Program-made: the position numbers and the translations under genes
Notes under the pieces: generated by a model
The model's input: the letters and a program-made list of their open reading frames with translations, nothing else
What the model was told of the DNA's origin: nothing
Database searches by the model: none
DNA from: Candidatus Kaiserbacteria bacterium
Lineage (GTDB): Bacteria > Patescibacteriota > Minisyncoccia > Phycocordibacterales > Phycocordibacteraceae
Reading direction: 5' to 3'
Length of the DNA stretch: 64,000 nt
Assembly: GCA_023269035.1 (NCBI GenBank)
Contig: JAHFMJ010000002.1
Location: 12,671-76,670, forward strand
In this document: piece by piece, positions 10,614-61,616 of the stretch
Position numbering within the stretch: the stretch's first letter is position 1
Layout: each line of letters starts with the position of its first letter

Positions 10614-11642
10614 TTAAGCCTCAACCAATTTCCCTTTGATCTCCTTGAGGAGGTCATTTGCTATTTTGGGATTTTCTTTGAGGAAGGTGCGTGTCGCGTC
10701 GTAGCCGCGGCCCAGCGGGGTTTCGCCGTATTTATATGAGGCGCCTGATTTGCTGATGATCGTGTACTTCTCGCCGAGCGCGATGAGCTCGCCTTCACGG
10801 GAGATACCCTCGTTGTACATGAGGTCGAACTCGGTCGCCTTGAACGGCGCGGCCACCTTGTTCTTGACCACTTTCACCCGCACGCGACCGCCGACGATTT
10901 CCTCACCCTTCTTTATCTGCGCTATGCGGCGGATGTCGAGGCGCACGCTGGTGTAGAACTTGAGCGCCTTGCCGCCAGTCGTCGTCTCGGGGTTGCCGAA
11001 CATCACGCCTATCTGCATGCGTATCTGGTTGATGAAGATGATGACCGTTTTGCTCTTTGAGGTTATTGCGGTGAGCTTGCGCAAAGCCTGGCTCATGAGC
11101 CGCGCCTGTTTACCCATCTGTGCTGAGCCCATCTCGCCCTCGATCTCATCTTTCGGCGTTAGCGCTGCTACAGAGTCAACGACGACGACATCTATCTTCC
11201 CGGAACGCACCAGGCTCTCGGTTATCTCGAGCGCCTGCTCGCCGGTGTCGGGTTGCGAGACAAGGAGCTCGTCGGTCTTCACGCCGAGTCGCTTGGCGTA
11301 GTCAGGGTCGAGCGCGTGCTCTGCGTCGACGAACGCGCATACACCTCCCTTCTTCTGCGCCTCGGCGATGATGTGGAGCGAGAGCGTTGTCTTGCCAGAG
11401 GACTCTGGCCCGAATATTTCAATAATGCGTCCGCGGGGAACGCCGCCGATGCCGAGCGCCCAGTCGAGGCCGATAGAGCCCGTCGGGATAGCGTCGACGC
11501 CTGATTTCGGGCGCTCACCGAGCATCATGATGGCCTCATCGCCGAATTTTGTCTTGATGCTCGCTATCGCCTGGTTGATAGCAGCTTTCTTTTCTGAAAC
11601 AGGTGCCTCAGGTGCTTTTTCAGTTTTCTTTTTTTGTGCCAT
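10614..11642 (-). CDS. recA: recombinase RecA
   Basis: Walker A (GPESSGKTT), the L1/L2 regions and the conserved [12 protein letters not shown] block are present. Typical RecA length with a short N-terminal extension. Confidence 0.95.
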
Positions 11643-12015
11643 AGGGTGTTGTGGTGGATAGGGTCTGCTCTGTTACAAAAGCAATTTCTTTGGTAATGGC
11701 GCGGCCGAACCGGTCACGGGCGACCACCTGGAGAGCAGTATACCCTCTTGGGTAGGCACGTCGAACCGAGAACGTCCCGTCTTCAGAGAGCGGTACCGGC
11801 GCACCGTCTATGCTCAGAAATGAGACCCGTTCCGTCGTCCCGCTTATTGCTGTCAGACCTTCGGTTGTTTGGGTCTCTTGCAGGGTCATGGATGGGCCCT
11901 CGATGTACGGAAGCGCGGCATAAAAACTGTAACCGACGACGATACATAAGGCCACGAGGCTAAGGACAAGAGCCGCACGCGCGGGGGAGAACCTGATTTC
12001 CTTATGCGGGCTCAT
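11620..12015 (-). CDS. hypothetical membrane-anchored protein
   Basis: 131 aa with an N-terminal TM helix. It is sandwiched with short overlaps between ftsK and recA on the same strand. Confidence 0.4.
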
Positions 12016-18500: not shown

Positions 18501-19095
18501 CCTTGGCCGCTTCACGGTCACGGCTGACTCACACGGTCCGGTCAACCTCGCGGAGTTCAACCTCCAGTTCGCAACGTCGTCGATTACACAGCTCTCTGCG
18601 GTGAACATCTACGGCTTTACGAACTCTGACTACACTGGTCCTATCAGCAACCTGACAGGCACCGGCGCAGTCAACTACCGTGGTCAGACGCTGACCGGCC
18701 CAACAAGCACGAACGCTGCTTTGTGGACCAGCTCAGCAACGAACTTCGAGTTCTCGGTTACCGACTCAACTGGCGCGTCAACGACGATCCAGGTCCCAGC
18801 CGGAACGACCTACTACTTCGAAATTCGCGGTACGGTGACTGGTGTTACGACTGGCTCAAGCGTCGTCACGACCTTGAGGGGTGATACGTATGCGCCGTTC
18901 ACTGCGAGCGGCCGCTACGCGAACCCGTTGGTCTCTTACACCAACAGCACTGCAATAGACACGGTGGGTGAAGCAGCCTTTATCTGGTCTCCGAACTCGA
19001 CCACCACAGCGGTGCTCGGTTCACAAGACTGGACAAACGCCTACAACATCCCTGGTCTCCCATCCAACGGCTTGATCTTCAACCGTGGAATCTAA
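15586..19095 (+). CDS. giant secreted cell-surface protein with N-terminal peptidoglycan-binding domain
   Basis: 1169 aa. Signal peptide (…FSFAVPAHA/ALT), PT-rich linkers (TTPTTPTTP) and a PG_binding_1-like segment (LGSKGTDVTCLQNALIANGF…AQTQAAVAAWQKSAGV), followed by about 1000 aa of T/S/G/A-rich beta-type repeats. Confidence 0.6.
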   Translation: MTSIAHNSVAKLAAVVVGLAIAFSFAVPAHAALTASQVQSILSLLQSFGADQSTINNVNASLTGQPTTPTTPTTPSACSFTKDLTLGSKGTDVTCLQNALIANGFSIPAGATGFFGAQTQAAVAAWQKSAGVSPAAGYFGPKSRAAFGSVSTGPTTPTTPVPTGTGLAVSAGVQPANSLAPAGATRVPFTRFVVTAGNDGDVVLNSVVVQRTGLGSNASFAGVILIDEASGTQLGTAKTFNSNDQATIGQKVTIPRGTSKTFLVGGNMASSLASYAGEAPSISVVSLNTSATVTGSLPISGATHTTNNTLTVGSLSIASSNAFAANATTTKEIGTTGYRATGLRLTSSSAEDVRIRSIRWNQIGSVTGSDIANVTTYVNGVAYPAIMSADGKYYESSLGSGVVLASGNNAEVYVTYDIVGGSGRTIIFHVEKSTDIYATGETYGYGATVTGGSAGTPFFFGYQITVSGATITTIQKANSVAAQNIAANVSNQVLGGFETNIKGEALTVQSMVFTVATTGVWTGSPEITNITLVDENGTVKAGPVDATTVAGGGQTLTFSDSITIPTGLHTWRLLGKLPSGAANGGTVIVTTVPSTGWGTPKGETTGDTISLSANGSFAMNTMTIKSGAMAVTRATSPASQIVVAGSTNLLMANLQFDASQSGEDVRFSSVPLSLTAASTTLGSLGQINNCLVYDGATAISDSAVNPSGASTATYTVTATLTNPITVTKGTVKTLGIRCNISTSATTNAGFIWDHGDITTFSFSGLSSGTSLQSSQVTAPTDTAVVVTVGAGAVTVATGAGSPSYKLAAAGSTDVTSGVIKLTATNEDVNLTELGLQLTTYASSSIADLVKASIYNGATKVGEAYFTTDSGSAAASTATSTLTGVTLTTGADVNLTVKLDFSSIATGGSATSSGHFVAVDFVSGKGTGVGSGGTYNLGAANGSTAVAGIRVFKSFPTVATGSGLSTTGLADGRLGRFTVTADSHGPVNLAEFNLQFATSSITQLSAVNIYGFTNSDYTGPISNLTGTGAVNYRGQTLTGPTSTNAALWTSSATNFEFSVTDSTGASTTIQVPAGTTYYFEIRGTVTGVTTGSSVVTTLRGDTYAPFTASGRYANPLVSYTNSTAIDTVGEAAFIWSPNSTTTAVLGSQDWTNAYNIPGLPSNGLIFNRGI

Positions 19096-23024: not shown

Positions 23025-26390
<3,366 letters not shown>

Positions 26391-26443: not shown

Positions 26444-26553
26444 TTCTGGTGGCTTGTCAGTGGGGTCATACCTGTTCCCATTCCGAACACAGAAGTCAAG
26501 CCCACGAGAGCCGATGGTACTCCGCAAGGGGGAGAGTAGGTAGTCGCCAGAAC
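26444..26553 (+). rRNA. rrf: 5S ribosomal RNA
   Basis: UCUGGUGGC…CCGAACACAGAAGUCAAGCCCACGAGAGCCGAUGGUACU…GAGAGUAGGUAGUCGCCAGAA, with helix I pairing at both ends. Confidence 0.85.
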
Positions 26554-35746: not shown

Positions 35747-36043
35747 GCCCTTTACGCTTGTCTCACGGTAAGCGTCGCTTTAACATCACTATGACTCACT
35801 TCATTCAGTAACCTACCGATCGAAGAGACGTCTGTGTGATGCCGAGGCAAAAGCTTCGGCTTTTTCAATCCCGTGCGCTCGTTGACAACTGAATAACGAA
35901 AGATGCAATCACAAACAAACCAGTCTAAGAAACTAATCCCGACGTAAAAAGTCGGGACCCCGACCTAGGCGTCGGGGGAGCTATTCAATTTCTTCTGTTC
36001 CGACTATCGATCTCGTGCCGCCCAATTGGAGGCATGAGATCTT

Positions 36044-37498
36044 AACTGAGAGTTTGATCCTAGCTCAGGGTGAATGCTGGCGGCGTGGATAAGGCATGCA
36101 AGTCGAACGGGTTTAGACCCGTGGCAGACGAGGTAGTAACACGTAGGAACGTACCCCAAAGTCGGGCATATTCCGTCGAAAGACGGTGCAATTCCCGATA
36201 GTCTCTAAGGAGTAAAGATTTATCGCTTTGGGAGCGGCCTGCGTAATATCAGCTAGTTGGTAGGGTAATGGCCTACCAAGGCTATGACGTTTAGGGGAGC
36301 TGAGAGGCTGACCCCCACCGATGGAACTGAGATACGGTCCTTACTCCTACGGGAGGCCGCAGTCGAGAATCTTCCGCAATGGACGAAAGTCTGACGGAGC
36401 GACGCCGCGTGATGGATGAAGTCCTTCGGGACGTAAACATCTTTTATGAGGGATGAAGTTTTGACAGTACCTCATGAATAAGGGGCTCCTAACTCTGTGC
36501 CAGCAGGAGCGGTAATACAGAGGCCCCAAGCATTACCCGGAATCATTGGGCGTAAAGGGTGCGTAGGTGGCGTTGTTAGTCCTTTCTTAAATTCTCCGTG
36601 CTCAACACGGAGGCTCGAAGGGAAACGGCAATGCTCGAGGATGTACGAGGTACGTGGAACTCATGGTGTAGGGGTGAAATCCGTTGATATCATGGGGAAC
36701 ACCACAGGCGAAGGCAGCGTACTGGGACATTCCTGACACTGAGGCACGAAAGCGTGGGTAGCGAATGGGATTAGATACCCCAGTAGTCCACGCCCTAAAC
36801 CATGTTCTCTAGCTATAAGGAGTATCGACCCTCTTTGTGGCGAAGCTAACGCGTTAAGAGAACCGCCTGGGTAGTACGAGCGCAAGCTTAAAACTCAAAG
36901 GAATAGACGGGAATTCGCACAAGCGGTGGATCATGTGGCTCAATTCGTAGGTAAGCGAAGAACCTTACCAGGGCTAGAAACCTAGCTGCACGCCTCGGGA
37001 AACCGAGGAAGCCTTCGAGGGTGCTAGGCAGGTGATGCATGGTCGTCGTCAGTTCGTGGCTTGAGCTGTTCCCTTAAGTGGGGAAACGAACGCAACCCCC
37101 GTTGTCTGTTTTATATGTCAGGCAAGACAGCTCCCTCACGGGAGAGGAAGGAGGGGATGACGCCAGATCAGCATGTCCCTCTGATGCCCTGGGCTGCACA
37201 CGTGATACAATGGGCGCGACAAAAGGATGCAATACGGTAACGTGGAGCAAATCCCAAAACGCGTCCTCAGTACGGATAGAGGTCTGCAACTCGACCTCTT
37301 GAAGCTGGAATCGCTAGTAATCGTAGGTCAGCCATACTACGGTGAATACGTTCTCGAATTTTGTACTCACCGCCCGTCAACTCAAGGGAGCCGGGAATAC
37401 CCGACGCCCGCGTTTATCGCGGTCCACGGTAAGTTCGGTAACAGGGAGTAAGTCGTAACAAGGCACGGGTAGCGGAAGCTGCTCGTGGAACAATTCCA
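36044..37498 (+). rRNA. rrs: 16S ribosomal RNA (divergent, CPR-like; 3' end approximate)
   Basis: It opens with AGAGUUUGAUCCUAGCUCAG…CAUGCAAGUCGAACGG. The internal conserved regions are recognisable but carry mismatches to universal sites: GTGCCAGCAGGAGCGGTAA versus the 515F consensus, GGATTAGATACCCCAGTAGTCC versus the 806R consensus, and TGTACTCACCGCCCGTCA. Helix 45 is intact (CACGGGUAGC-GGAA-GCUGCUCGUG). About 1455 nt. Confidence 0.85.
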
Positions 37499-37676
37499 TG
37501 CGGAAAACATCTCTCCGAGATTCGTCTCGAAGGATTTATCCGGTCGATTGCCGAAAGGCAGAGTGATGATGTATGACTCTAAACAACATCCGGCACGCAG
37601 ATTGCCGAAACTGCGATAGGCGGAACAGAAGAAAGGGAAGAGCTCTTGGTCACTCTGGTTTGGAAATTCCAGGGAT

Positions 37677-50342: not shown

Positions 50343-50582
50343 ATGTCAAAAGGGTCGGCGATCATCGTCCTTGGTCTTCTTTCGGCTTTTATACCGTTCA
50401 CTGGTTTTGGAGCGCTCGTCAAGGTCCTCGCGGTGCTCTTTGGATTCCTTATCATGGGTCTCGGGTTCTTGGTGCGGCAAGAGAGGCTTTGGCTCCTGCG
50501 CTCTCTCTCGGGAGAACATAAAACTGATGCATACACAGAAAACACTGCACCACAAAGCGGCACATCACATCAAGAAGCTTAA
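50343..50582 (+). CDS. hypothetical small two-TM membrane protein (79 aa)
   Basis: MSKGSAIIVLGLLSAFIPFTGFGALVKVLAVLFGFLIMGLGFLV… Its 3' end overlaps the start region of the next ORF in another frame. Confidence 0.35.
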   Translation: MSKGSAIIVLGLLSAFIPFTGFGALVKVLAVLFGFLIMGLGFLVRQERLWLLRSLSGEHKTDAYTENTAPQSGTSHQEA

Positions 50583-51612
50583 GGTGCCGCTTACCATAGG
50601 GGCCGCGATGCTGCTCGCAGCCGTAGCTTTTGCGTTCGTTCCGCACGAGTGGGACACGAGCGGCGCATTAGCCGATGCGTCCCCGCCCAAGCCAAAACCA
50701 GTACTCGACAAGGCCGCGTACGACCGACGTGTACTCGCGCTCGCTAATTACCCGGCTTTGGTCGGTACCTCGACTGCGTCAACTACGCCACACCTTTGGC
50801 CGGCAAAAGCCGTCTACCCGAATGCCGGCGCTCTTTTGCCTTTCCGCCGCATCGTCGCGTACTACGGTAATTTTTATTCCAAAGGTATGGGAGTGCTTGG
50901 TCAGTATCCGGAGGACGAGATGCTTATCAAGCTGAAGGGCGAGGCTGCGCTCTGGCAAGCCGCAGACCCAACGACCCCGGTCACGCCAGCCATCGACTAC
51001 ATTGCCGTAACGGCTCAGGCGAGCCCGTCTGCGACCGGAAAGTACATACTCCGCATGCCGGACACTCAGATCGACCGCGCGCTCGAGCTCGCGGCGAAGG
51101 TGGATGGCATCGTCATCCTCGATGTCCAGGTCGGACAAAGCACCTTGCAAACCGAGTTACCGCTCCTGGAAAAATACCTTTCGATGTCGAACGTGCACCT
51201 CGCCATCGACCCGGAATTCTCGATGAAGCACGGCGAGAAGCCCGGCAGGGTCATCGGCACTTTCTCTTCCGCAGACGTCAACTATGCGGCAACCTACCTG
51301 GCAGGGCTGGTGCAGGCGAATGACTTGCCGCCGAAGATCCTCGTCGTCCATCGCTTTACCGAGGACATGGTTACTGGGTATAAGAACATCACGCCTTTGC
51401 CCGAGGTGCAGATCGTGATGGATATGGACGGCTGGGGTTTCGCGGCAAAGAAGATCAACACCTATAACACGGTCATTTATCCAGAGCCGGTGCAGTTCGC
51501 TGGATTCAAATTGTTTTACAAGAACGATCTGCTCGCGCCCTCGACGCGTATGCTCACGAAGGAAGAGATACTGGAGCTCAGGCCGCGGCCGATATTCATC
51601 CAGTATCAGTAG
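50527..51612 (+). CDS. hypothetical membrane-anchored/secreted protein
   Basis: About 361 aa from the ATG at 50527 (or 50608). TM anchor LTIGAAMLLAAVAFAFV followed by an extracytoplasmic domain. Blocks (VDGIVILDVQVGQS, LAIDPEF, KILVVHRF) vaguely suggest a TIM-barrel hydrolase-like fold. Confidence 0.45.
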   Translation: MHTQKTLHHKAAHHIKKLKVPLTIGAAMLLAAVAFAFVPHEWDTSGALADASPPKPKPVLDKAAYDRRVLALANYPALVGTSTASTTPHLWPAKAVYPNAGALLPFRRIVAYYGNFYSKGMGVLGQYPEDEMLIKLKGEAALWQAADPTTPVTPAIDYIAVTAQASPSATGKYILRMPDTQIDRALELAAKVDGIVILDVQVGQSTLQTELPLLEKYLSMSNVHLAIDPEFSMKHGEKPGRVIGTFSSADVNYAATYLAGLVQANDLPPKILVVHRFTEDMVTGYKNITPLPEVQIVMDMDGWGFAAKKINTYNTVIYPEPVQFAGFKLFYKNDLLAPSTRMLTKEEILELRPRPIFIQYQ

Positions 51613-51659: not shown

Positions 51660-53123
51660 ATGGATTGGGGTGGCACGGTTACCTACCTCGCAGAAACTTC
51701 GCTCAAAGGGCGCTCGGTACCCTTTGGCATAAAGGACCAAGACCGTTTTGCGCATGTCTGCGTGATGGGACGGGCAGGGAGCGGACGCGCAGCACTCCTC
51801 GCTCGCATGGCCCTGCAGGATATCGAGCGCGGCGTCGGGACCGTCATCTTGGATGCCTCAGGCAACCTCGCACCCCTTCTCGTCGAAAGGCTCTCCAAGG
51901 ATGTTCGCGAACGGCTCATATTCCTCGACCCTGCTGACGCGGAGTATCCGTTTTCATGGAATCCGCTTGATGAATTCCGGGCGCTCCCTTCCGAGCGGGC
52001 ACTGCCTGTGCTCTCGAGTGCGATCGCGAGCCTCTACCGCATCCCCTCGAGCGCATTGACCGACACGCTCGCGAGCCACCTTCTCTCGAACAACGAGTCG
52101 ACGATGCTCACCGCGTACGACCTCCTGACCGATCCGGTGGTGAGGGAGAAGGCGTTCGGCACGGACTCTGACGAGCGTAAAAACTTTGAGACCATCATGA
52201 GCGATGCCGCGGAGAGCGTCGCGATTGTCACCGAGCAAGGCCGCTACCTCGCCAAGGATTCATTGGTGCGTAACCTCATCGGACAGAGCACATCCAAATT
52301 CTCTCTCGCGGCGCTTGAGAAAGGCGGCATCATCGTTGTCGACCTCTCTCGTATCCGGATGTTCCCGACGCGCATCACCCCCCTGGTACGGCTCTTCACC
52401 CATGCAGCGCGTTCCCGCGGGCTCAGCAATTCCCCGGTGACTGCATTCCTTCATGATTGCCTGCGCTACCTTGCCGAAGAGGATATCGACCGCATCCTTC
52501 CTGAGCGTTCCGTCGCGCTTGTCATCGCAGAGAGCATCCATACCGAGGAAGACAAGCCACTTCGTGATAAGGCCCTCGCACGGAGCGGTTCCGTCATCGC
52601 CTTTTCGTCACGCGAGGAAGACCTCGCCTCCGTTGAACACCTCTTCTATCCGTACGTTTCTCCTGAAGAGCTTGCGCTCTTGGAGGAAGGGGAATGCTGC
52701 ATCGCGCTCACCATCGACTCGGTCCGCTCGCGGCCTTTTTATGCGCGCGCGCTTTCCCTCCCGGAGCGGACGGGATGGTCGGCGCACGACGCTCTTGCTA
52801 TCTCACGGGAACGCTCCACGACGCCGCGCATCAAGGTCGACCAGCTTTTCAAAGAGAAGGGCTCTTCTGACGAGAAGAGTGAAAAAGGGAAGGGTAAAGA
52901 CGATGACCCTGGTTCGTTCTCAAGCGCGTTCCGTTCGATCTTCGCCAAGCAAGCTGGCACGACCGGGGCGCCATCCGCGCCTGCAAAGCCGGGGACTACG
53001 ACAGAGACCGAAAAAGTGAAAGAAACCAAAGAAGCGAAGAAGGCGCCTGCGGCGGTGAAGCCTTCGGAGATCCCGGAAGAGGAGCTCCGTCGCATGCTGT
53101 ATGTGGAACCGATGCCAGCATAG
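51660..53123 (+). CDS. P-loop NTPase of VirD4/TraG/HerA-like (DUF87-type) family with degenerate Walker A and a Lys/Glu-rich low-complexity tail
   Basis: VCVMGRAGSGRAALLARMA has an Arg where the Walker A Lys is expected. It also carries …ILDASGNLAP…IFLDPADAEYPFSWNPLD…. The C-terminal 90 aa are K/E/T/P-rich. Confidence 0.45.
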   Translation: MDWGGTVTYLAETSLKGRSVPFGIKDQDRFAHVCVMGRAGSGRAALLARMALQDIERGVGTVILDASGNLAPLLVERLSKDVRERLIFLDPADAEYPFSWNPLDEFRALPSERALPVLSSAIASLYRIPSSALTDTLASHLLSNNESTMLTAYDLLTDPVVREKAFGTDSDERKNFETIMSDAAESVAIVTEQGRYLAKDSLVRNLIGQSTSKFSLAALEKGGIIVVDLSRIRMFPTRITPLVRLFTHAARSRGLSNSPVTAFLHDCLRYLAEEDIDRILPERSVALVIAESIHTEEDKPLRDKALARSGSVIAFSSREEDLASVEHLFYPYVSPEELALLEEGECCIALTIDSVRSRPFYARALSLPERTGWSAHDALAISRERSTTPRIKVDQLFKEKGSSDEKSEKGKGKDDDPGSFSSAFRSIFAKQAGTTGAPSAPAKPGTTTETEKVKETKEAKKAPAAVKPSEIPEEELRRMLYVEPMPA

Positions 53124-53901
53124 TTTCGTAGCACTTTTTGTTCTGGCGCTTGCTCCGGCAAGCGCCTTTGCAAATGTTGCAATAACCGAGGTCATGTACG
53201 ACGTGCCGGGCGCGGACACCGGGCGCGAATGGATAGAAATACAAAATACGGGCTCAACTGCGGTCACTGTAAGCGGCTGGAAACTTTTTGAAGGAGGGGT
53301 CAATCATAAAATACTTGCGGTAAAAAATTCCACGCTCGCTCCGGGTGCCTATGGTGTCATCGCCGACACTCCAGAAAAATTTTCTGCAGACTGGCCTGGA
53401 TTCTCCGGCACTCTTTTTGAAAGCTCTTTTTCTCTTAAGAACACGGGCGAATCGCTTGTCGTAAGAGACGCGTCGTCGACAGACATCGCTTCAATCACCT
53501 ATGACCCCGGCCTTGGTGCCGGCGGCGATGGCAACACATTGAACTTGATCGCGGGCGCGTGGGTGTTGCGGCAAGCCTCTCCTGGGGCAAGCCCATCAGA
53601 GGCTGCCATCGCCTCTCAAGAAAAGCCGGCAAAGTCACCTGCAACCAAGACCGGTGTTTCTGGAGTAAGCAAGGTAGATGGCGCTAACGATCCTGCTTTG
53701 GGCTCGCGAGGCGCCGTCACCATTTCTGGCGGTGCAGCCGGAAGAAGCGCGGAGGCCGCTACCGTATCATTTTTCAGTAACCACAGCATCTTTCCGTATG
53801 CGCTCGGACTGTGCGCCGTTATTGGTATCGGTATCGCGGCAGCCATACGTCCTCGCAAACAAGCAAAAGGCGAGTACACTATCATAGAAGAAAAATCATG
53901 A
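53101..53901 (+). CDS. secreted lamin-tail-domain (LTD) protein with C-terminal TM anchor
   Basis: Signal peptide (FVALFVLALAPASAFA). LTD signature (VAITEVMYDVPGADTGREWIEIQNTGSTAVTVSGWKL…). C-terminal hydrophobic segment (YALGLCAVIGIGIAAAI). It overlaps the preceding gene by 23 nt. Confidence 0.6.
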   Translation: MWNRCQHSFVALFVLALAPASAFANVAITEVMYDVPGADTGREWIEIQNTGSTAVTVSGWKLFEGGVNHKILAVKNSTLAPGAYGVIADTPEKFSADWPGFSGTLFESSFSLKNTGESLVVRDASSTDIASITYDPGLGAGGDGNTLNLIAGAWVLRQASPGASPSEAAIASQEKPAKSPATKTGVSGVSKVDGANDPALGSRGAVTISGGAAGRSAEAATVSFFSNHSIFPYALGLCAVIGIGIAAAIRPRKQAKGEYTIIEEKS

Positions 53902-54758
53902 GCGATTCAAAATTGATACTCGTCACTGGCGGTGCCGGCTTTGTCGGCTCGCGCCTTTGCGCGCGACTGCAGAAGGAGGGCCACCACGTCATCTCTCTTG
54001 ATAACTATTTCACCGGCAGCCGCGATGCACGGGTCCCCGGCGTTGAGTACCGCGAAGGACACACGAAGGACATTGAGAAGCATGTCAGTGAGACGCCGGA
54101 TATCATCTATCACCTTGGCGAATACTCGCGCGTCGAACAAAGCTTCGACGACGTTGCGCTCGTATGGGACCTCAACAAAGCCGGCACCTTTGGCGTCCTC
54201 GAGTTCTGGAGGAAGCGTGCGTGCAAGCTCGTTTATGCCGGCTCTTCTACCAAGTTCGCCGACGGCGGCTTAGGCCGCGACCAGAGCCCGTACGCCTGGA
54301 CGAAGGCCAGCAATACGGAGCTGGTACGCAACTACAGCGCCTGGTTTAAACTTCCGCACGCGATAACCTATTTCTACAACGTGTATGGCCCTGGTGAGCG
54401 CTCGGGGAAGTACGGCACCGTTATTGAGATTTTCCGCCAAAAGCACTTGAAGGGAGAACCGCTTACAGTCAATGCGCCGGGCACGCAAAAACGCAATTTT
54501 ACCTATATTGAAGATATTGTCGAAGGTCTTCTTCTGGTTGGAGAGAAAGGAGAGGGCGACGACTATGGCCTCGGGGATGAGCGCGAATATTCCATACTCG
54601 AGATCGCGAAACTCTTTGGCGGAAAGATGGTCATGGGACCTGCGACTGCCGGCAACCGCATGGCCTCCGCGATAGATACCGCAAAGGCAAAAGGGCTCGG
54701 ATGGAAGGTCACCACAAGCGTCGAGGAGTATGTGAAGAAGATCGTCGCCGGTTCATGA
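53898..54758 (+). CDS. NAD-dependent epimerase/dehydratase (UDP-glucuronate decarboxylase/UXS-like)
   Basis: MSDSKLILVTGGAGFVGSRLCARL… (GxxGxxG) and SDR fold blocks are present. The start was trimmed to the ATG at 53898. Confidence 0.8.
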   Translation: MSDSKLILVTGGAGFVGSRLCARLQKEGHHVISLDNYFTGSRDARVPGVEYREGHTKDIEKHVSETPDIIYHLGEYSRVEQSFDDVALVWDLNKAGTFGVLEFWRKRACKLVYAGSSTKFADGGLGRDQSPYAWTKASNTELVRNYSAWFKLPHAITYFYNVYGPGERSGKYGTVIEIFRQKHLKGEPLTVNAPGTQKRNFTYIEDIVEGLLLVGEKGEGDDYGLGDEREYSILEIAKLFGGKMVMGPATAGNRMASAIDTAKAKGLGWKVTTSVEEYVKKIVAGS

Positions 54759-55963
54759 AAAAGATACTGATCTTTTCCCTCGCGTACTACCCGCGCGTCG
54801 GCGGCGCGGAAGTTGCCATAAAAGAGATTACCGATCGCATCAGGGATATCGAGTTCCATATGGTCACGCATCGGTTCGATGCATCGGCACCTGCGCAAGA
54901 GAAAATAGGCAACGTGCTCGTCCATCGTATCGGCTCCGGCTCGTCGTATGTTTCAAAGATACTGTTCATCCTGCGCGCTGCGCGCTTTGCGCGCGCGCTT
55001 GACCGGGAGCACCACTATGACGCGCTCTGGGCGATGATGGTCTACATGACTCTCCCCATCACGCTGATGCGCCTCTTCGACACGCGCATCCCGTACCTGC
55101 TCACGCTCCAAGAGGGTGATCCGTATGAGCACGTCTTCAGTCGCTGGTATATCAGGATTTTCTTACCGCTCCTCTCCGCCGGCTTTCGCCATGCTCGCGT
55201 CGCACAAGCGATCTCGACCTATCTTGCGGAGTGGGCGAAGCAGTACGGTTTCAAAGGCACTCCTCGCGTCATCCCGAACGGTGTCGACACCAAGCATTTT
55301 TCACAAACATATCCGCCCGCGGTTCTCAACGAGCTCAAAGATACGCTCGGAAAGAAGATGGGTGATGTCTTTCTCGTTACCACCTCGCGCCTGGTGAAGA
55401 AGAATGCCGTCGACGACGTCATTCGCGCGCTCCGGCAACTGCCCACACACGTCCGTTTCCTGATTATCGGTTCCGGACCCGACGAGGCGATGTTGAAAAA
55501 ACTTGCACAGACATGTGGCGTCACCGAACGTGTCACCTTTCTTGGCCATGTTGACCATGCGGAGCTCCCGAAATATCTCAGCGTCTCCGACATCTTTATC
55601 CGCCCGTCCCGCTCAGAGGGGATGGGAAATTCATTTATCGAAGCATTTGCCGCAGGGCTTCCGGTCATTGCGACCCAAGAGGGCGGCATCGCTGATTTTC
55701 TTTTTGACGAGAAACGTAATTCTGATAAGCCGATTACCGGATGGGCGGTCGACAAGGACTCTCCCAAGCAGATCGCGCAGGCGGTGGAGGAGATCATGGC
55801 GCGCTCCGAGAAGGTGCGTGCAGTGACGGCAACCGCTCGACAGATAGCCGTTGCGCAGTATGACTGGAATCTCATCGCGAAACGCATGAACGACGAAGCA
55901 TTCAGGGCTCTTTTTGAAACGATGCCAGTTTCTGCTACCATTTCCCCTAGGAAGCCACAATGA
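54755..55963 (+). CDS. glycosyltransferase family 1
   Basis: GT-B/GT4 C-terminal signature (…SRSEGMGNSFIEAFAAGLPVIATQEGGIADF…). The start overlaps the previous stop (ATGA). Confidence 0.8.
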   Translation: MKKILIFSLAYYPRVGGAEVAIKEITDRIRDIEFHMVTHRFDASAPAQEKIGNVLVHRIGSGSSYVSKILFILRAARFARALDREHHYDALWAMMVYMTLPITLMRLFDTRIPYLLTLQEGDPYEHVFSRWYIRIFLPLLSAGFRHARVAQAISTYLAEWAKQYGFKGTPRVIPNGVDTKHFSQTYPPAVLNELKDTLGKKMGDVFLVTTSRLVKKNAVDDVIRALRQLPTHVRFLIIGSGPDEAMLKKLAQTCGVTERVTFLGHVDHAELPKYLSVSDIFIRPSRSEGMGNSFIEAFAAGLPVIATQEGGIADFLFDEKRNSDKPITGWAVDKDSPKQIAQAVEEIMARSEKVRAVTATARQIAVAQYDWNLIAKRMNDEAFRALFETMPVSATISPRKPQ

Positions 55964-56427
55964 AGAAAAAACCGATTATTGTTGCCGCCTCCGGAGGTTT
56001 TGACCCGATCCATATCGGGCATATCCGTTATTTGCGGGGAGCCAGGAAGCTCGGCGACAAGCTCATCGTCATCCTCAATAATGACAACTGGTTGCAGAAG
56101 AAAAAAGGCTTCGTCTTCATGCCGCAGAAAGAGCGCGCCGAGATCATACGCTCCTTCCCGTTCGTCGATCAGGTGGTCATCACCGATCACAGCAAAGGCG
56201 ACCGCGATGTCAGCGTGGTGAGCGCCTTGCGGAAGATCCGTCCGGCGATATTCGCTAACGGTGGCGACCGCTTCAAGGACGATATTCCCGAGGCGATCCT
56301 TTGCAACACCCTCGGCATACGCATGGTGTTTAATGTTGGCAAGGGCGGCAAGGTGCAATCATCCTCGCAGCTGACGGCGCGTGCCATGAAGAGCGCCATG
56401 AGAAATGTTCTGCGCCACATAAAATAA
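55960..56427 (+). CDS. cytidylyltransferase-like nucleotidyltransferase (RfaE domain II/TagD-like)
   Basis: HxGH motif region (IIVAASGGFDPIHIGHIRYL). 155 aa, CTP_transf_like fold. Confidence 0.7.
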   Translation: MKKKPIIVAASGGFDPIHIGHIRYLRGARKLGDKLIVILNNDNWLQKKKGFVFMPQKERAEIIRSFPFVDQVVITDHSKGDRDVSVVSALRKIRPAIFANGGDRFKDDIPEAILCNTLGIRMVFNVGKGGKVQSSSQLTARAMKSAMRNVLRHIK

Positions 56428-56428
56428 G

Positions 56429-57541
56429 ATGAAGGTCCTCATCACGACCGGGCTCTATCCGCCGGAGATCGGCGGGCCTGCCACGTACTCGAAATTCCTC
56501 GTCGATCAATTGCCCCGCTACGGCTACGAGGTCGAAGTCCTCGCGTTCCGTGACGTACGGGAGTACCCGAAATTATTTCGTCACTTCATGTTTTTTTTCA
56601 AAGTCCTTGCACGCGGTCGGCACGCCGACATCCTCTATGCGCAAGATACGATAAGCGTCGGCGTGCCGACCGCGTTTGCGAACGTCTTCCTACGGAAAAA
56701 ATTCGTGCTCCGTATACCGGGCGACCACGTGTGGGAACAGGGGACGCAGCGCTTTGGCGTGAAAGAGATGCTTGAAGACTTCCCGCTTTTCTCCTCACAC
56801 TGGCACCCCTATCTCATGGTGCTCCGGCTCTTACAAAGGTTCGTGGTGAAAAGCGCCGATCTCGTCATCGTCCCCAGCAAGTATCTTGAGCGAATCGTCT
56901 CCGCCTGGCAGGTAGAACCGCAACGCTTGAAATTGGTATACAACGGTATTGAAGAGTTCAAGGATACCGGCAACAAGCCGGTCCTGCGGGGGCTCCTCAA
57001 GTTCCAAGGCAAGCTCCTCGTATCTATCGGCCGGCTCGTCTCGTGGAAAGGGTTTGCCGGCCTTATCGACCTCATGCCGAGCCTCAAGAATGATTTTCCC
57101 GACCTAAAACTCCTTATCGTCGGCAATGGGCCTGACCTCGCATCATTGGAGGAGCGTGCGAGGAAGAAGGGGCTCGCTGATGACGTCATCTTTGCCGGAG
57201 GGCTTGAGCGGGACGTGCTTATCCGCTACATCCGTGTTTCGGACGTCTTCGTCCTTAACTCGCGCTATGAGGGGCTCTCGCACCAGCTCCTCGAAGTGAT
57301 GGCGGTTGGTGTGCCTATCGTCGCAACCAAAGTGGGCGGGAACAAGGAGGTCATCGACCATGAGAAGAACGGATACCTGGTCGCACCGGATGATGCGCCG
57401 CGCATGAGGAAGTACATCGGCGAGCTTTTGAGGAATACCGAATTGCGCGCCCGCATCACTGCGGCAGGGAAGCGGAAGGTAAAGCAGTTCTCGAACGAGA
57501 AGATGGCTCAGCAGACGGCGCAGCTGTTCAAAGCTCTATGA
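56429..57541 (+). CDS. glycosyltransferase family 1
   Basis: …YEGLSHQLLEVMAVGVPIVATKVGGNKEVI… is the GT4 signature. Confidence 0.8.
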   Translation: MKVLITTGLYPPEIGGPATYSKFLVDQLPRYGYEVEVLAFRDVREYPKLFRHFMFFFKVLARGRHADILYAQDTISVGVPTAFANVFLRKKFVLRIPGDHVWEQGTQRFGVKEMLEDFPLFSSHWHPYLMVLRLLQRFVVKSADLVIVPSKYLERIVSAWQVEPQRLKLVYNGIEEFKDTGNKPVLRGLLKFQGKLLVSIGRLVSWKGFAGLIDLMPSLKNDFPDLKLLIVGNGPDLASLEERARKKGLADDVIFAGGLERDVLIRYIRVSDVFVLNSRYEGLSHQLLEVMAVGVPIVATKVGGNKEVIDHEKNGYLVAPDDAPRMRKYIGELLRNTELRARITAAGKRKVKQFSNEKMAQQTAQLFKAL

Positions 57542-58596
57542 AGGTGCTGATGCTCTCGACCGATCGGAAACTCTTTGAAGCGGATAGCGCTGTAGGGAAA
57601 CGCGTTGCTCTCTATGCGGCGCTGATGGATGAGCTGCACATCATTGTTTTTTCATGCGCTCCGCATCGTCCGCCGATCCGATTAGGGAAGAACGTTTTCA
57701 TCTACTCAACGAACTCATTCTCACGTTTTGCCTATGTGTATGACGCCGTTCGGATCGGAGCGGCCCTGAAGGGGATAGATGTCGTCACGACGCAAGACCC
57801 GTTCGAGGTCGGGCTCGCGGGCATGCTCATCGCGCGCCGCCTCGGCGCGCCGCTCCATGTGCAGGTGCACACCCATTTTCTTGGCGCTGGCTTTGCGCAG
57901 GCACATTGGCCGCTGAATGGGATTCGCATGGTCATTGCACGTTTTGTCCTCTCTCGTGCAAAGCGCATACGCACCGTCTCAGAGCGTATAAAAGAAAAGC
58001 TCATCGCGACATACGCGCTCACGGTGCCTATTTCTGTCCTTCCTATTTTTGTTGATGCAGGAAAGTTTCACATGCTAGGGCACACCACGCATCCTCGTTT
58101 CAAGACGACACTCCTCGTGGTGTCGCGGCTCGAAAAGGAAAAGCACGTCGATACAGCGATTGATGCCCTGAAGAAAGCACGCGATGCCGGTTTCCCGGCC
58201 GGTATCGTTGTCGTTGGGACAGGGAACGAAGAATCGGCCTTGAAAAAGAAGGTAAAAGACCTCGGGCTTTCAAACGAGGTCGAATTTCCGGGCTTTCAGG
58301 CTGACCTGCTTCCGTATTACAGTATGGCCGACCTGGTGCTCTCTCCCGGCGCTCCGTACGAAGGCTTCGGCATGGTCGTTATAGAAGCGCTTGCCGCTGG
58401 CGTTCCTGTCCTCTCGAGAGATGTGGGCGTCGCGCGGGAGGCGGGGGCGATGATCGCGGAAGGGAACTTTGGCGACGCGCTCCTTGCCTGGCTATCGGGC
58501 GCGAGGGAAAAAGGAGTGTTACGCTATAGCCCATATGCGAGTACTGATGAATACGCGCGTCGCTTCGTAGAAGATATCGCGTTGTGCAAACCATGA
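57538..58596 (+). CDS. glycosyltransferase family 1
   Basis: …PYEGFGMVVIEALAAGVPVLSRDVGVARE… is the GT4 signature. Confidence 0.75.
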   Translation: MKVLMLSTDRKLFEADSAVGKRVALYAALMDELHIIVFSCAPHRPPIRLGKNVFIYSTNSFSRFAYVYDAVRIGAALKGIDVVTTQDPFEVGLAGMLIARRLGAPLHVQVHTHFLGAGFAQAHWPLNGIRMVIARFVLSRAKRIRTVSERIKEKLIATYALTVPISVLPIFVDAGKFHMLGHTTHPRFKTTLLVVSRLEKEKHVDTAIDALKKARDAGFPAGIVVVGTGNEESALKKKVKDLGLSNEVEFPGFQADLLPYYSMADLVLSPGAPYEGFGMVVIEALAAGVPVLSRDVGVAREAGAMIAEGNFGDALLAWLSGAREKGVLRYSPYASTDEYARRFVEDIALCKP

Positions 58597-59939
58597 GTAC
58601 GAACTCACACGACAGGAAATATTTTGGTACCGACGGGGTGCGGGGAGCGGTCGGGCAGAAGCTAATGACCGCCGACTTTGCCCTGCGGCTCGCAAACGCA
58701 GCCGCGCGGGTGCTCGCGCCGAATGGCGGGACCGTGCTCATCGGCAAAGACACGCGGCTCTCCGGATACATGTTCGAGTCGGCGCTCGAAGCAGGCTTCG
58801 TCTCCGCTGGGGTCAACGTCATGCTCATGGGCCCGCTGCCCACTCCCGGCATCGCGTATATGACGAAGCATTTCGCCTGCGACTTTGGCGTGGTCATCAG
58901 CGCATCCCATAATCTCTATAATGATAACGGCATCAAGTTCTTCGATGGCAACGGCGAGAAGCTCTCGGATGCCCTCGAGCATGAGATAGAGAAACGCTTG
59001 GAAGAGCCGTCGGTGACGCGCGAATCAAAAGCGCTCGGACGCGCGACACGCGTCGACAGGTCGCGCGCTGAGTACCAGAAGTTTTGCACCTCGACGTTCC
59101 CCGCGGGCCTCTCTCTTGAAGGCGTGAAGCTCGTGGTCGACTGTGCGAACGGCGCAGGATACAAAGTGGGACCACGAGTCTTTGCTGATCTCGGCGCGGA
59201 GGTCATCCCGATCGGCACCGCGCCGAACGGAACGAACATCAATGACGGCTGCGGCGCTACCGCGCCGCAGCTCCTGCAGCTGATGGTCACGGGAGCCCAC
59301 GCGGACGCCGGTATCGCGCTTGATGGCGACGGCGACCGCCTCATCATGGTCGATGCGGAAGGAAACATCGTCAATGGCGATCAGCTGCTCTACATCCTTG
59401 CCAAAGACCGCAAAGAGCGTGGCACCTTGAAAACCCCGGTCGTCGGGACCGTCATGAGCAACGTCGGTCTCGAGCTCGCACTGAAGGAGCTCGGCATCGA
59501 ATTTAAGCGTGCCCAGGTGGGCGATCGCTACGTGCTCGAGATGCTCCGCGAGACCGGTGGGACGCTTGGTGCCGAGTCCTCAGGGCACGTGCTCTGTCTT
59601 GATATCGCGACCACGGGCGACGGCATCGTCAGCGCGCTCCAGATCCTTGCCATCATGAAGCGCTCAGGTACGACCCTTCAGGCTCTGACGCAGGGGATGC
59701 ACACATTCCCCCAGGTGCTCCTCAATGTGGCCGTTTCAAAGAAAGTCGATCCGTATTCGGTCCCGGCGATAGAAAAAGCCGCGAAAGAAATAGAAAAAGC
59801 CTTAGGGAACGAAGGACGTGTCGTACTCCGCGCCTCGGGGACGGAGCCGGTCGTCAGGGTCATGATAGAGGCGCGTGAGAAAGAGACAGCAGAGCGATAC
59901 GCGAAGAGCCTTGCCGATACGGTACGCGCAGCTGTCTGA
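58593..59939 (+). CDS. glmM: phosphoglucosamine mutase
   Basis: KYFGTDGVRG…, the active-site Ser loop (ISASHNLYNDNGIKFF) and the C-terminal phosphate-binding region are present. The start overlaps the previous stop (ATGA). Confidence 0.9.
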   Translation: MSTNSHDRKYFGTDGVRGAVGQKLMTADFALRLANAAARVLAPNGGTVLIGKDTRLSGYMFESALEAGFVSAGVNVMLMGPLPTPGIAYMTKHFACDFGVVISASHNLYNDNGIKFFDGNGEKLSDALEHEIEKRLEEPSVTRESKALGRATRVDRSRAEYQKFCTSTFPAGLSLEGVKLVVDCANGAGYKVGPRVFADLGAEVIPIGTAPNGTNINDGCGATAPQLLQLMVTGAHADAGIALDGDGDRLIMVDAEGNIVNGDQLLYILAKDRKERGTLKTPVVGTVMSNVGLELALKELGIEFKRAQVGDRYVLEMLRETGGTLGAESSGHVLCLDIATTGDGIVSALQILAIMKRSGTTLQALTQGMHTFPQVLLNVAVSKKVDPYSVPAIEKAAKEIEKALGNEGRVVLRASGTEPVVRVMIEAREKETAERYAKSLADTVRAAV

Positions 59940-59942
59940 TGC

Positions 59943-61616
59943 ATGCTTTTCTTAAGGGAACATAGCGTGATGCTCAAGCTCGGAGCGCTCATGGCGCTCG
60001 GCTTCCTGCTCCGGCTCGGCGCAGTGACCTACGGGCTTCCTTTTGATGTTTTTGGCGACGAGTTCGTTCATGTTGCGACGGCGCTCTCGTTCTTGAACGG
60101 CATGACGCTCGTCGCGTCGCAATCGTTTTCATACGTACCATCCTTCATGGCTCTTATGCTCGCGCCGTTCTTCGTTCTTTACGGCGGTATTGGTATCATC
60201 CTCCATACCTTCGCAAACGTCGCCGCATTCAAAGAGTTTGCCATCCTCAATACGGAATGGTTCATGATCGGAGGGCGCATCCTCTCGGCGCTCTTCGGAA
60301 CTGCATTCCTCGGCCTCATCTTCCTTTTTGCAAAACAATTCATGTCGAGCCGGTTCGCGCTCCTTGCCGCCGCGTTCGCCGCGTTCGACTTCTGGCTCGT
60401 GCATGAGTCACAGATTGGGCACTTCTGGATGCCGATGACGTTCTTCATACTCGCTGCCTGCTATGCGCTCCTCCGCGTTGCACAAGGAGGAGGGAAGCGG
60501 TGGTCCCTCGCTTCTGCAGCCATGATCGCGTTCGGGTACTGGTGTGGCTACGTCTCCGTGTTGCTCATCCCCTGGTTCGTTCTTGCACATGCCGCTGCAA
60601 AACCGCGTTCATATAAGGAATTCTTTTTCTCGAACGGCGTACTGGCATTTTTGTTCGCTGGTATCTCGTGGCTCAATCCCGTCAGTTTCCTGCGCCAGTT
60701 CGGCCGTGCGCTGAAGAACCTCCTTCTTGTCGCCGGCATAGCGATACTGCCCGACCTCCCGGTGACGACCGGCGTCGGCGCGGTGCACCCGCTTCAAAAC
60801 GCGCTCCTCGTAGGACGCGTGATCTTCGATGCGAATCCTTTTCTTCTCTGCGTAGCCCTTATAGGTTTTGTGCTCATCGCTCGGCGATTCAAGCTCTTTT
60901 CCTTCGAGTCGAGCGTGCTCATAGGATTTCCGATCGCCTACTACGTCGTCACGATCTTCATCTGGACCGATCCTGATCCGCGCTACATCCTGCCCATCAT
61001 CCCGTTCCTTGTCGTCTCCTGCGCTTTTGCACTCTCTGAATTGAGCGTCTTTCTAATAAAGCGGATGAGCCCGCTTTTCGTTCGCATTTCTGTCAGTGTT
61101 GTCGCTATCGGCATCATCCTCTACACCTTTGCCCCGACAGTGCAGTACACGCTTCTTCTCCAACAGCCTGACACGCGCGTTGCTGCGGCTCTGTGGATAA
61201 CAGAGCACATTCCCTCGGGGGCTCATGTCGTTCTTGATGCTAAGAAGCTCACGCTCCCACGCGACAGCGAAGTGCTGACCTATTTGGAAAAGAACGCCCC
61301 GGGCGAACTACGCACGAAAGACCGCTTCTTGATCGAGAAAGGGGAAGTCCCGTCACCGGCATATTTCGTACTCTCTCGCGCGGTTGCCGATTCGCTCACC
61401 CTGCCGCTCAAGCAATTCGATTGGTACGTCAACGAGTATTATCCCGATACGGATACGCATGACCCGGGTAATGGGTTCATACGCGTTGCCACGTTTTCGC
61501 CCGCGCAGAAGAGCAATCTGGCCGATACGCTCTCAGGAGCGCTTGACCCGTTCGCAGCGCTCACTGGGCTCACCAACCTCGGGCCCTACGTTGTTATCTA
61601 TAAGCGTGCAGAGTAG
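59943..61616 (+). CDS. polytopic membrane glycosyltransferase of the GT39/GT83 (PMT/ArnT-like) superfamily
   Basis: 557 aa with more than ten TM helices. The N-terminal loop with acidic DE motif (LPFDVFGDEFVHV) is typical of GT-C enzymes that use polyprenyl-phosphate sugar donors. Confidence 0.55.
   Translation: MLFLREHSVMLKLGALMALGFLLRLGAVTYGLPFDVFGDEFVHVATALSFLNGMTLVASQSFSYVPSFMALMLAPFFVLYGGIGIILHTFANVAAFKEFAILNTEWFMIGGRILSALFGTAFLGLIFLFAKQFMSSRFALLAAAFAAFDFWLVHESQIGHFWMPMTFFILAACYALLRVAQGGGKRWSLASAAMIAFGYWCGYVSVLLIPWFVLAHAAAKPRSYKEFFFSNGVLAFLFAGISWLNPVSFLRQFGRALKNLLLVAGIAILPDLPVTTGVGAVHPLQNALLVGRVIFDANPFLLCVALIGFVLIARRFKLFSFESSVLIGFPIAYYVVTIFIWTDPDPRYILPIIPFLVVSCAFALSELSVFLIKRMSPLFVRISVSVVAIGIILYTFAPTVQYTLLLQQPDTRVAAALWITEHIPSGAHVVLDAKKLTLPRDSEVLTYLEKNAPGELRTKDRFLIEKGEVPSPAYFVLSRAVADSLTLPLKQFDWYVNEYYPDTDTHDPGNGFIRVATFSPAQKSNLADTLSGALDPFAALTGLTNLGPYVVIYKRAE

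Follow-up and report, generated by a model that had tools for sequence, protein, structure and literature searches.

A catalytically degenerate VirD4/TrwB-like protein genetically tied to a membrane-anchored surface protein in Parcubacteria

Type IV coupling proteins (T4CPs), such as VirD4, TrwB, TraD, TraG, and DotL, share a RecA-like nucleotide-binding domain (NBD) with an inserted all-alpha domain. A large number of genes of this kind exists in Patescibacteria: PMC12102498 reports 5,713 VirD4-like genes in 2,918 genomes, 148 of which are located near virB4, and suggests exaptation for the homologues located away from it. According to the same text, the role of these thousands of orphan genes, lying outside any type IV secretion system (T4SS), is a puzzle. 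Here, a degenerate relative of such genes is analysed together with the gene that overlaps its 3' end, in a stretch of 64,000 nucleotides of a Candidatus Kaiserbacteria contig (JAHFMJ010000002.1, assembly GCA_023269035.1), hereafter the window. The first gene encodes a P-loop protein (referred to as the NTPase) and the second a surface protein (the partner) carrying a lamin-tail domain (LTD). An initial annotation had considered the former a VirD4/HerA-like NTPase with a degenerate Walker A motif and had proposed that the pair could form a DNA-capture module feeding the downstream glycan operon. All the evidence reported below is computational and was obtained from metagenome-assembled sequences.

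The comparison with the known T4CPs reveals both a common architecture and several differences. The NTPase exhibits this same fold; in its AlphaFold model, the helices spanning residues 103-221 are placed between core strands, and the active relatives of the protein match Pfam TrwB_AAD_bind over this region. However, the N-terminal transmembrane (TM) domain of T4CPs is missing: the N-terminus consists of a beta-hairpin followed by the P-loop from residue 37, with no hydrophobic segment (as judged from both model and sequence), and the membrane helices come from a separate or C-terminally fused partner. Moreover, the family has lost the Walker A Lys and Ser, the Walker B Asp, and the so-called RK segment, and neither virB4 nor relaxase nor other T4SS genes were found in the flanks (up to ~8 kb) of the window gene and of about 35 loci, the window being annotated in part. 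The orphan VirD4-like T4CPs of Patescibacteria, among which the proteins of loci L038-L040, L043, and L044 and the representatives P0106, P0108, and P0112 (see below) are included, are likewise encoded away from virB4; the available text of PMC12102498, however, contains no degenerate clade, no LTD/TM-tail partner, no fusions, and no fixed slot by DUF4015 and glycan genes. Literature searches on LTD in Patescibacteria and on degenerate T4CPs in the candidate phyla radiation (CPR) retrieved nothing relevant, and no description of the degenerate clade, its partner, or the fusions was found.

Other systems resemble the locus in single aspects. In EccC/EssC of the type VII secretion systems (FtsK/HerA superfamily), degenerate domains lie in the same chain as an active domain and bind secreted substrates, whereas in the present case degeneration affects the entire protein, and the peptide that it would bind is part of a membrane-anchored partner; such binding is inferred, and an AlphaFold chimera (see below) was negative. 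CapA/CapB and Wzc combine a membrane modulator and a P-loop bacterial tyrosine kinase (BY-kinase) of polysaccharide operons, which are split or fused depending on the species. By analogy, the window locus might obey the same genetic logic, with a bitopic or two-TM ectoprotein bearing a cytoplasmic C-terminal tail and a cytoplasmic P-loop protein, split or fused, at the head of a glycan cluster. However, the P-loop fold of BY-kinases is MinD-like and that of the NTPase, which is not a MinD/SIMIBI-type P-loop kinase domain, is RecA/T4CP-like; the domain order is the opposite one, and no tyrosine cluster exists here. Lastly, three orthologues of the partner resemble the Gram-positive ComEA in that an HHH_3 domain immediately follows their signal/TM segment, although ComEA lacks the LTD/PKD domains and the C-terminal TM-tail of the partners, and no helix-hairpin-helix (HhH) domain was detected in the window partner by the Pfam scan.

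The homologues of the NTPase fall into about 105 clusters (39-55% identity), all of them from Patescibacteria/Parcubacteria metagenome-assembled genomes and with no informative names among them. An exhaustive phmmer search was also made against 1.8 billion representatives, 27 of which matched with E < 1e-30. A clear score gap separates the full-length members of this family (at least 300 bits) from 4,567 more distant relatives (all at most 120 bits), and 120 of the 123 next-best proteins beyond the family possess a canonical GK[ST] Walker A. Since direct searches of the PDB with the window protein and with the family profile gave only marginal matches (TrwB with E = 0.4 and a spurious TetR-like protein with 0.007), the NTPase was classified through the profile of its active relatives, whose top matches were TrwB (4.6e-9) and DotL (6e-8), HerA following with only 9e-4. 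The family assignment of the initial annotation holds. The active relatives pass the Pfam TrwB_AAD_bind and TraG-D_C thresholds (in a scanned subset of 10 out of 93), and the nearest of them, as well as the orthologues located in the same slot, differ in this respect from the window protein, which scores 15.7 bits against PF10412, below the gathering score of 20.5, and in the Pfam scan matched neither PF02534 nor DUF87/HerA_C nor FtsK_SpoIIIE. Neighbour-joining placed the degenerate proteins in a single clade with a long stem branch. As far as the sequences can tell, the degenerate family is a monophyletic, lineage-specific descendant of soluble VirD4/TrwB-like coupling proteins in Parcubacteria, and the label [quoted passage not shown] is misleading here. 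A defence-system reading was also considered and rejected: the PADLOC matches were weak and generic (HerA/mad8), and the genomic context is a housekeeping one.

The catalytic positions were counted in 98 full-length family members. The sequence GRAGSGRA (residues 37-44), where the initial annotation had correctly pointed out that an Arg substitutes for the Walker A Lys, corresponds in the alignments to GATGTGKS in TrwB and to GKTGTGK[ST] in the closest active relatives; the Lys position is occupied by Arg in 93 proteins, by Lys in two, and by Ala in two, and the following Ser/Thr position by Ala (52), Gly (14), Ser (11), or Thr (5), a Ser or Thr being kept in only 16/98. In several members the P-loop is broken further, either by deletions or by sequences like GRPSNATG and GKTGQRMP. 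The inspection of Walker B and of the arginine finger, which the same annotation had recommended, revealed that the Walker B Asp is lost in 98/98, with His (64), Tyr (15), Asn (8), Gln (7), Ser (3), or Phe (1) at this position and neither Asp nor Glu in any protein; the next position is Asp in 83 and Glu in 14. In the active relatives, a hhhVDEF motif is followed by SEARKYxL and then by AHQ, aligned to IDEL, GRKAG, and GLQ of TrwB, respectively. The Arg in the GRKAG-aligned segment is presumably the arginine finger, and a gap of three to seven residues, depending on the alignment, removes this RK (ARKY) segment in the degenerate family. Judged from the alignments, the family as a whole has therefore lost four catalytic elements: Lys and Ser/Thr of Walker A, Asp of Walker B, and the RK segment.

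Nonetheless, several features speak against a decaying gene. Thirty-two positions are invariant and 46 near-invariant among 40 sequences of 42-55% identity, and the full length is kept in about 100 clusters. Non-catalytic motifs in common with the active relatives include, among others, FGIKxxDR, QD, IDxxG, and IDxVRxxPF. At the position where the active relatives have NLSKGxIGE, the degenerate family carries SRIRMFPTR, in which S230, P236, T237, and R238 are invariant in the 40 sequences. The last 90 residues of the NTPase are rich in Lys, Glu, Thr, and Pro (47% versus 21% in the core), and the disorder that had been predicted for them agrees with a low confidence of the AlphaFold model (predicted local distance difference test, pLDDT, of about 45-58, i.e., below 60) except for a helix at residues 473-480, where it is up to 84. 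Two short motifs are conserved within this tail (Table 1). A zinc-ribbon origin of the first one, FSxAFRSIF, was evaluated and discarded: a CxxC...CxxC pattern occurs in 5/123 of the nearest active relatives and is absent in the active orthologues of the same slot.

The link between the NTPase and its partner is documented by gene order, overlap, and fusion. The scan of one genome per GTDB species disclosed 27 loci of the NTPase family, to which five were added by exact protein look-up. The partner directly follows the NTPase in 27 of the 28 loci with readable downstream sequence, and the two window genes overlap by 23 nucleotides (53101-53123), as previously noticed, with the start codon of the partner nested in the end of the C-terminal NTPase motif. 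The identical overlap, with the ATG embedded in [TC]ATGT[GCT], was found in five other genomes (L006, L009, L012, L013, and L024), where it falls on the [Y/H]-V codons of the NTPase end ...L[RK]xML[YH]V. In other cases the two genes are joined into a single open reading frame (ORF): 839 amino acids in L020 (8001-10520) and 738 in L036 and L037, two loci sequenced in independent runs. Fused proteins of this kind also occur among the 50%-identity cluster representatives (six, of 737-932 amino acids), and the fusion cluster P0120 is present in both NCBI and Logan assemblies. The order of the fused parts is NTPase, disordered tail, MLYVxP, hydrophobic segment (corresponding to the partner signal peptide), ectodomain, TM helix, and tail. 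This split/fused ("Rosetta stone") pattern, together with translational coupling, ties the NTPase to the partner, at least as far as gene structure is informative.

In the fused P0116, P0120, P0125, and L020 proteins, a small-x-small site resembling that of signal peptidases (TYA-Q, GYA-Q, and ALA-S) is retained within the internal hydrophobic segment. The fusion product might be cleaved after membrane insertion, yielding an NTPase with a C-terminal anchor and a part composed of ectodomain, TM helix, and tail. A programmed frameshift giving a fused product in the window was regarded as unlikely, no slippery sequence being evident in 53095-53123.

The partner begins with a hydrophobic segment (residues 1-24, ending with AFA) that might be a signal peptide or a first TM helix, followed by the LTD (Pfam PF00932, residues 20-134, E = 1.7e-15, 57.8 bits versus a cutoff of 34.3), by a low-complexity linker rich in Ser, Thr, Pro, and Ala, and by the C-terminal anchor; the signal-peptide LTD protein with C-terminal anchor of the initial annotation was thus recognised correctly. 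The start of the protein is M32 in the NCBI call (235 amino acids), whereas the ENA call has the 266-amino-acid form; the latter, starting at 53101, is favoured because the homologues, which also have the same C-terminus, keep the N-terminal hydrophobic segment and because the overlapping start codon is exactly conserved.

The ectodomain of the partner, including the LTD to which the initial annotation had attached importance, is not its constant part. Ectodomains with LTD, with LTD and PKD, and with a ComEA-like HhH followed by PKD and LTD were all found, the LTD occurring in 21 partner loci, in some of them with an added PKD, and in six loci (L015, L021, L022, L023, L033, and L035) the partner is reduced to a mini-protein of 39-66 amino acids with no ectodomain. 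Since these six mini-partners keep the TM helix and the Y-x-I-x-E motif, the constant element is the TM helix plus tail rather than the LTD. In all the partners, a C-terminal TM helix is followed by a basic stretch and then by a tail of the type [S/D][G/E]-Y-x-I-x-E. In 37 non-redundant tails, the three motif positions are occupied by Tyr (32) or Phe (4), by Ile (33) or Val (3), and by Glu (30), and in 33/37 the motif lies seven to nine residues from the C-terminus. In six-frame scans, the combined TM helix and tail pattern has a single match in the window, namely the partner, and in L001-L027 (352 kb) it occurs only at the partner position. On the basis of the positive-inside rule, the tail is inferred to be on the cytoplasmic side of the membrane, i.e., the same side as the NTPase.

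Taken together, the conserved neighbourhood, the conserved 23-nucleotide overlap, the natural fusions, and the survival of the tail upon ectodomain loss indicate that NTPase and partner represent one unit. We hold, with modest confidence, that this unit is a non-hydrolysing, membrane-tethered scaffold or adaptor, made up of a surface protein and a protein derived from a VirD4/TrwB-like NTPase, and not a DNA motor. According to this model, the NTPase would no longer hydrolyse NTP and would reside on the inner face of the membrane, probably as a ring as in its relatives, held there by the TM-tail of the partner (covalently in the fused forms), the two proteins being presumably co-translated through the overlap. 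The ectodomain, LTD in this case, is exchangeable and the TM-tail constant; the strand-like tail Y-T-I-I-E-E could either add to a sheet or fill the dead nucleotide cleft of the NTPase, and the GxxGSGR loop, being still conserved, may accommodate an anion or a nucleotide. In this way the NTPase might organise the surface protein beside the envelope-glycan machinery. An envelope or surface role is favoured by the position of the pair, which invariably has a DUF4015-type ectoprotein on one side and the epimerase/GT4 genes on the other, and by the 4-nucleotide, ATGA-type coupling of the partner with the epimerase.

Some observations weigh against the scaffold interpretation. One of the 28 loci, L025, has no partner, and in L044 (P0142) an intact T4CP-like gene without a partner is directly followed by GT4 genes. 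Since the whole block of at least 10 genes is syntenic, the linkage with the glycan genes could reflect an inherited gene order rather than a common function. An AlphaFold2 chimera joining the NTPase with the last 48 residues of the partner showed a tail with pLDDT of about 35, no secondary structure, and no docking (in a monomer run with a single-sequence tail). Finally, the P-loop is itself conserved in part (G37 in 98/98, G40 in 82, G42 in 79, and R43 in 93/98), so some ligand, possibly a nucleotide, may still be bound.

The search for distant LTD proteins, carried out using the partner as a query, revealed that in sister lineages they also lie directly downstream of a catalytically intact T4CP-like gene in the same slot (Table 1). 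The motifs of these intact proteins are GKTGMGKS, YVDE[FC], SE[AS]RKYKL, and A[HN]QY, and a C-terminal E[IV]PExxL[RK]xxL motif, present in 12/123 of the nearest active representatives, is found in them too. It follows that the window protein, judged by synteny, is the degenerate orthologue of a T4CP-like protein that is ATP-competent and was coupled to an LTD surface protein from before the degeneration. The degeneracy noticed in the initial annotation thus extends to the whole family, but the description as a regulatory paralogue does not hold, and "orthologue" should take its place.

The existence of intact orthologues in the same slot points to an ancestral ATP-driven state, and a broader and tentative proposal, which we deem rather improbable in its full extent, can be built on it. 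A T4CP-like protein and a TM-tail partner might constitute an undescribed Parcubacteria envelope machine, a sort of split, permuted coupling protein, whose exchangeable surface part would be recognised via Y-x-I-x-E. Located at the head of the surface-glycan cluster and ancestrally driven by ATP, it might transport or anchor something across the membrane; where the ComEA-type HhH is present it could act, for instance, as a receptor or a gate for DNA, and the window clade would be a catalytically dead, structural version. In more sober terms, the locus is a degenerate, partner-dependent offshoot of the orphan Patescibacteria T4CP-like proteins and discloses no new principle. Still, it gives one orphan T4CP subgroup a testable anatomy (a fixed slot, an obligate membrane partner defined by its tail, split and fused forms, and a series from intact to dead proteins), so that one can ask which function an exapted coupling protein has at the envelope of bacteria that are ultra-small and host-dependent, and for which of its tasks ATP is required.

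A second, paralogous group of T4CP-like proteins of Patescibacteria (P0106, P0108, and P0112 type) is distinguished by a C-terminal treble-clef zinc ribbon and is much larger, with at least 8,000 clusters at E < 1e-30 and about 60-67% identity across candidate phyla. In L041 (3658-6806) and L042 (2191-5228), its gene follows a Sigma70_r4/HARE-HTH gene and a DUF8128 gene, and these three genes may represent another conserved module; MraY, AlaRS, and ScpAB are found in other contexts of the group. None of the 120 matches listed, out of at least 8,000 obtained with P0106, lies on the large contigs harboring the degenerate gene, such as the one of 831,433 bp.

The DNA-capture module put forward in the initial annotation, in which the surface protein would bind extracellular DNA and the T4CP-derived protein would handle or gate it in the cytoplasm, appears unlikely. 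It is suggested by the ancestry of the NTPase among DNA-binding coupling proteins, by the ATP use that the intact orthologues imply for the ancestral module, by a weak N-terminal match of the LTD to the extracellular nuclease ExeM, and above all by the ComEA-type HHH_3 that precedes PKD and LTD in L026, L027, and representative P0116. However, these are the only three partner forms examined that carry the HhH domain, which the window partner lacks; the six mini-partners have no ectodomain at all, the motor residues have been lost in this clade, and no comEC, pilus, or dprA genes were found in the flanks, where the neighbours are wall and glycan genes. In addition, the association of LTD proteins with competence in bacteria with small genomes, which the initial annotation had presented as known, was not found in the literature search for Patescibacteria, and the idea that such a module feeds the glycan operon is unsupported.

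An equally low probability is assigned to a nucleotide-dependent switch, in which the Arg-containing P-loop would bind, without rapid hydrolysis, ATP, GTP, or a different phosphate ligand and in this way regulate the partner or the glycan enzymes, according to the logic of CapA/CapB and Wzc. The purifying selection on GxxGSGR, quantified above, speaks in favour of it, as does the occurrence, split or fused, of a two-TM ectoprotein with cytoplasmic tail and of a P-loop protein at the head of a polysaccharide operon. Yet the family has lost the Mg-coordinating Ser/Thr together with the Walker B Asp, the P-loop is disrupted in several members, and both the RecA/ASCE fold of T4CP type and the domain order depart from those of BY-kinases and Wzc, respectively.

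Less probable still is that the partner is a substrate, its Y-x-I-x-E tail being a sorting signal read by a T4CP-like targeting receptor in the way in which coupling proteins and EccC read C-terminal signals. Each locus contains one tail-bearing ORF, and the window does not contain a second one; the natural fusions and the translational coupling imply a 1:1 stoichiometry, unfit for a receptor with many clients; and a tail lying on the cytoplasmic side of the TM helix is not exported. That there is no functional coupling whatsoever, the NTPase being a decaying remnant and the adjacency an inherited order in a compact genome, is close to refuted, since the synteny of the murC-to-GT4 block in every locus examined and the loss of the catalytic motifs are outweighed by independent in-frame fusions, an exactly conserved overlap, a tail kept despite ectodomain loss, and the number of invariant positions in a family of full-length proteins.

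Table 1. Coordinates of the features discussed in the text (positions of the window, unless a locus is indicated).
Feature	Location	Strand	Length	Basis or remark
Small TM protein directly after rsmI	50343-50582	+	79 aa	Synteny
Membrane-anchored ectoprotein in the slot of DUF4015 elsewhere	50527-51612	+	361 aa	Synteny
NTPase: T4CP (VirD4/TrwB)-like P-loop protein, degenerate, no TM segment	51660-53123	+	487 aa	ORF
Degenerate Walker A GRAGSGRA, residues 37-44	51768-51791	+		Alignment to TrwB and active relatives
All-alpha insertion, residues ~103-221, counterpart of the T4CP all-alpha domain	51966-52322	+		AlphaFold; Pfam on relatives
SRIRMFPTR, residues 230-238, family-specific invariant motif	52347-52373	+		Alignments
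Degenerate Walker B AFLHD, residues 262-266	52443-52457	+		Alignment; RK/Arg-finger segment after it deleted
Disordered NTPase tail with two conserved short motifs	52851-53120	+	90 aa	Composition, pLDDT, conservation
Tail motif F-S-x-A-F-R-S-I-F, residues 420-428	52917-52943	+		F420 and F424 invariant
Tail motif E-I-P-E-x-x-L-R-x-M-L-Y-V, residues 470-482	53067-53105	+		E470 invariant; common to active orthologues
Conserved gene overlap	53101-53123	+	23 nt	Partner ATG within TATGTG, the Y-V codons of the C-terminal motif of the NTPase
Partner: signal peptide/TM1, LTD, S/T/P/A linker, C-terminal anchor	53101-53901	+	266 aa	ORF, Pfam
Partner constant core: TM helix (residues ~230-249), basic RPRKQAK, predicted cytoplasmic tail GEYTIIEEKS	53788-53898	+		Tail statistics
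Glycan gene array: epimerase, GT4, cytidylyltransferase, GT4, GT4, phosphohexomutase-like, PMT_2-type transferase	53898-61616	+		Pfam
Intact same-slot T4CP-like with LTD partner	L038 (Kaiserbacteria)		729 aa	
Intact same-slot T4CP-like with LTD partner	L039		604 aa	
Intact same-slot T4CP-like with LTD partner	L040		609 aa	
Intact same-slot T4CP-like	L043 (P0158)		502 aa	LTD partner overlaps by 26 nt

The genes surrounding the pair are arranged in a compact array. All the genes from murC (48443) onwards, up to the window end, lie on the + strand and are separated by gaps of 1-12 nucleotides or overlap by four, in agreement with the tightly packed, same-strand glycan operon of the initial annotation. 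The order in the 27 loci of the family is murC, rsmI, small TM protein, 1.2-kb ectoprotein gene, NTPase, partner, epimerase, GT4, and GT4, and it is the same in the five loci added by look-up. The small TM protein (76-85 amino acids, no Pfam family) is kept after rsmI in essentially every related locus, and in the window its gene overlaps by 56 nucleotides with the next one. The latter encodes the ectoprotein, for which no Pfam or NCBIfam match was found and whose close homologues are confined to L018 and L025; with the DUF4015 proteins (putative glycosyl hydrolases) occupying this slot in most related loci it has in common only the N-terminal cytoplasmic and TM anchor, so that it looks like the outcome of an ectodomain swap on a conserved anchor. 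The epimerase and GT4 genes follow the pair in nearly all loci.

Variations on this scheme were observed on both sides of the pair. In one subclade, DUF4015 is replaced upstream of the NTPase by a 193-amino-acid PaaX-central/Cas2-like protein (L001, 7090-7671), and similar ORFs are present in L003, L004, and L006. Downstream, a single ORF of 700-890 amino acids combines the epimerase with the first GT4 in L009 (10173-12839), L013 (6724-9399), L033 (8684-11320), and L035 (8600-10699).

Some other features of the window may be mentioned. A complete FtsK, with alpha, motor, and gamma domains, is encoded at 12002-14170 (- strand), so that a DNA translocase of the ordinary kind exists in this genome in addition to the degenerate T4CP-like protein, and a RecA-like gene, judged from its sequence alone, is located at 10614-11642 (- strand). 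Two large putative surface proteins are encoded on the + strand, one of 1,169 amino acids with PG_binding_1 (15586-19095) and one of 622 amino acids with a DUF11 repeat (661-2529), and the six-frame scan of the window detected the Y-x-I-x-E tail in neither. The rRNA genes, all on the + strand, are unlinked: the 23S (23043-26375) and 5S (26445-26552) genes precede the 16S gene (36042-37500) by about 9.5 kb, with protein-coding genes in between. The 23S match spans 3,333 nucleotides for a model of 2,925, which suggests an insertion of about 400 nucleotides.

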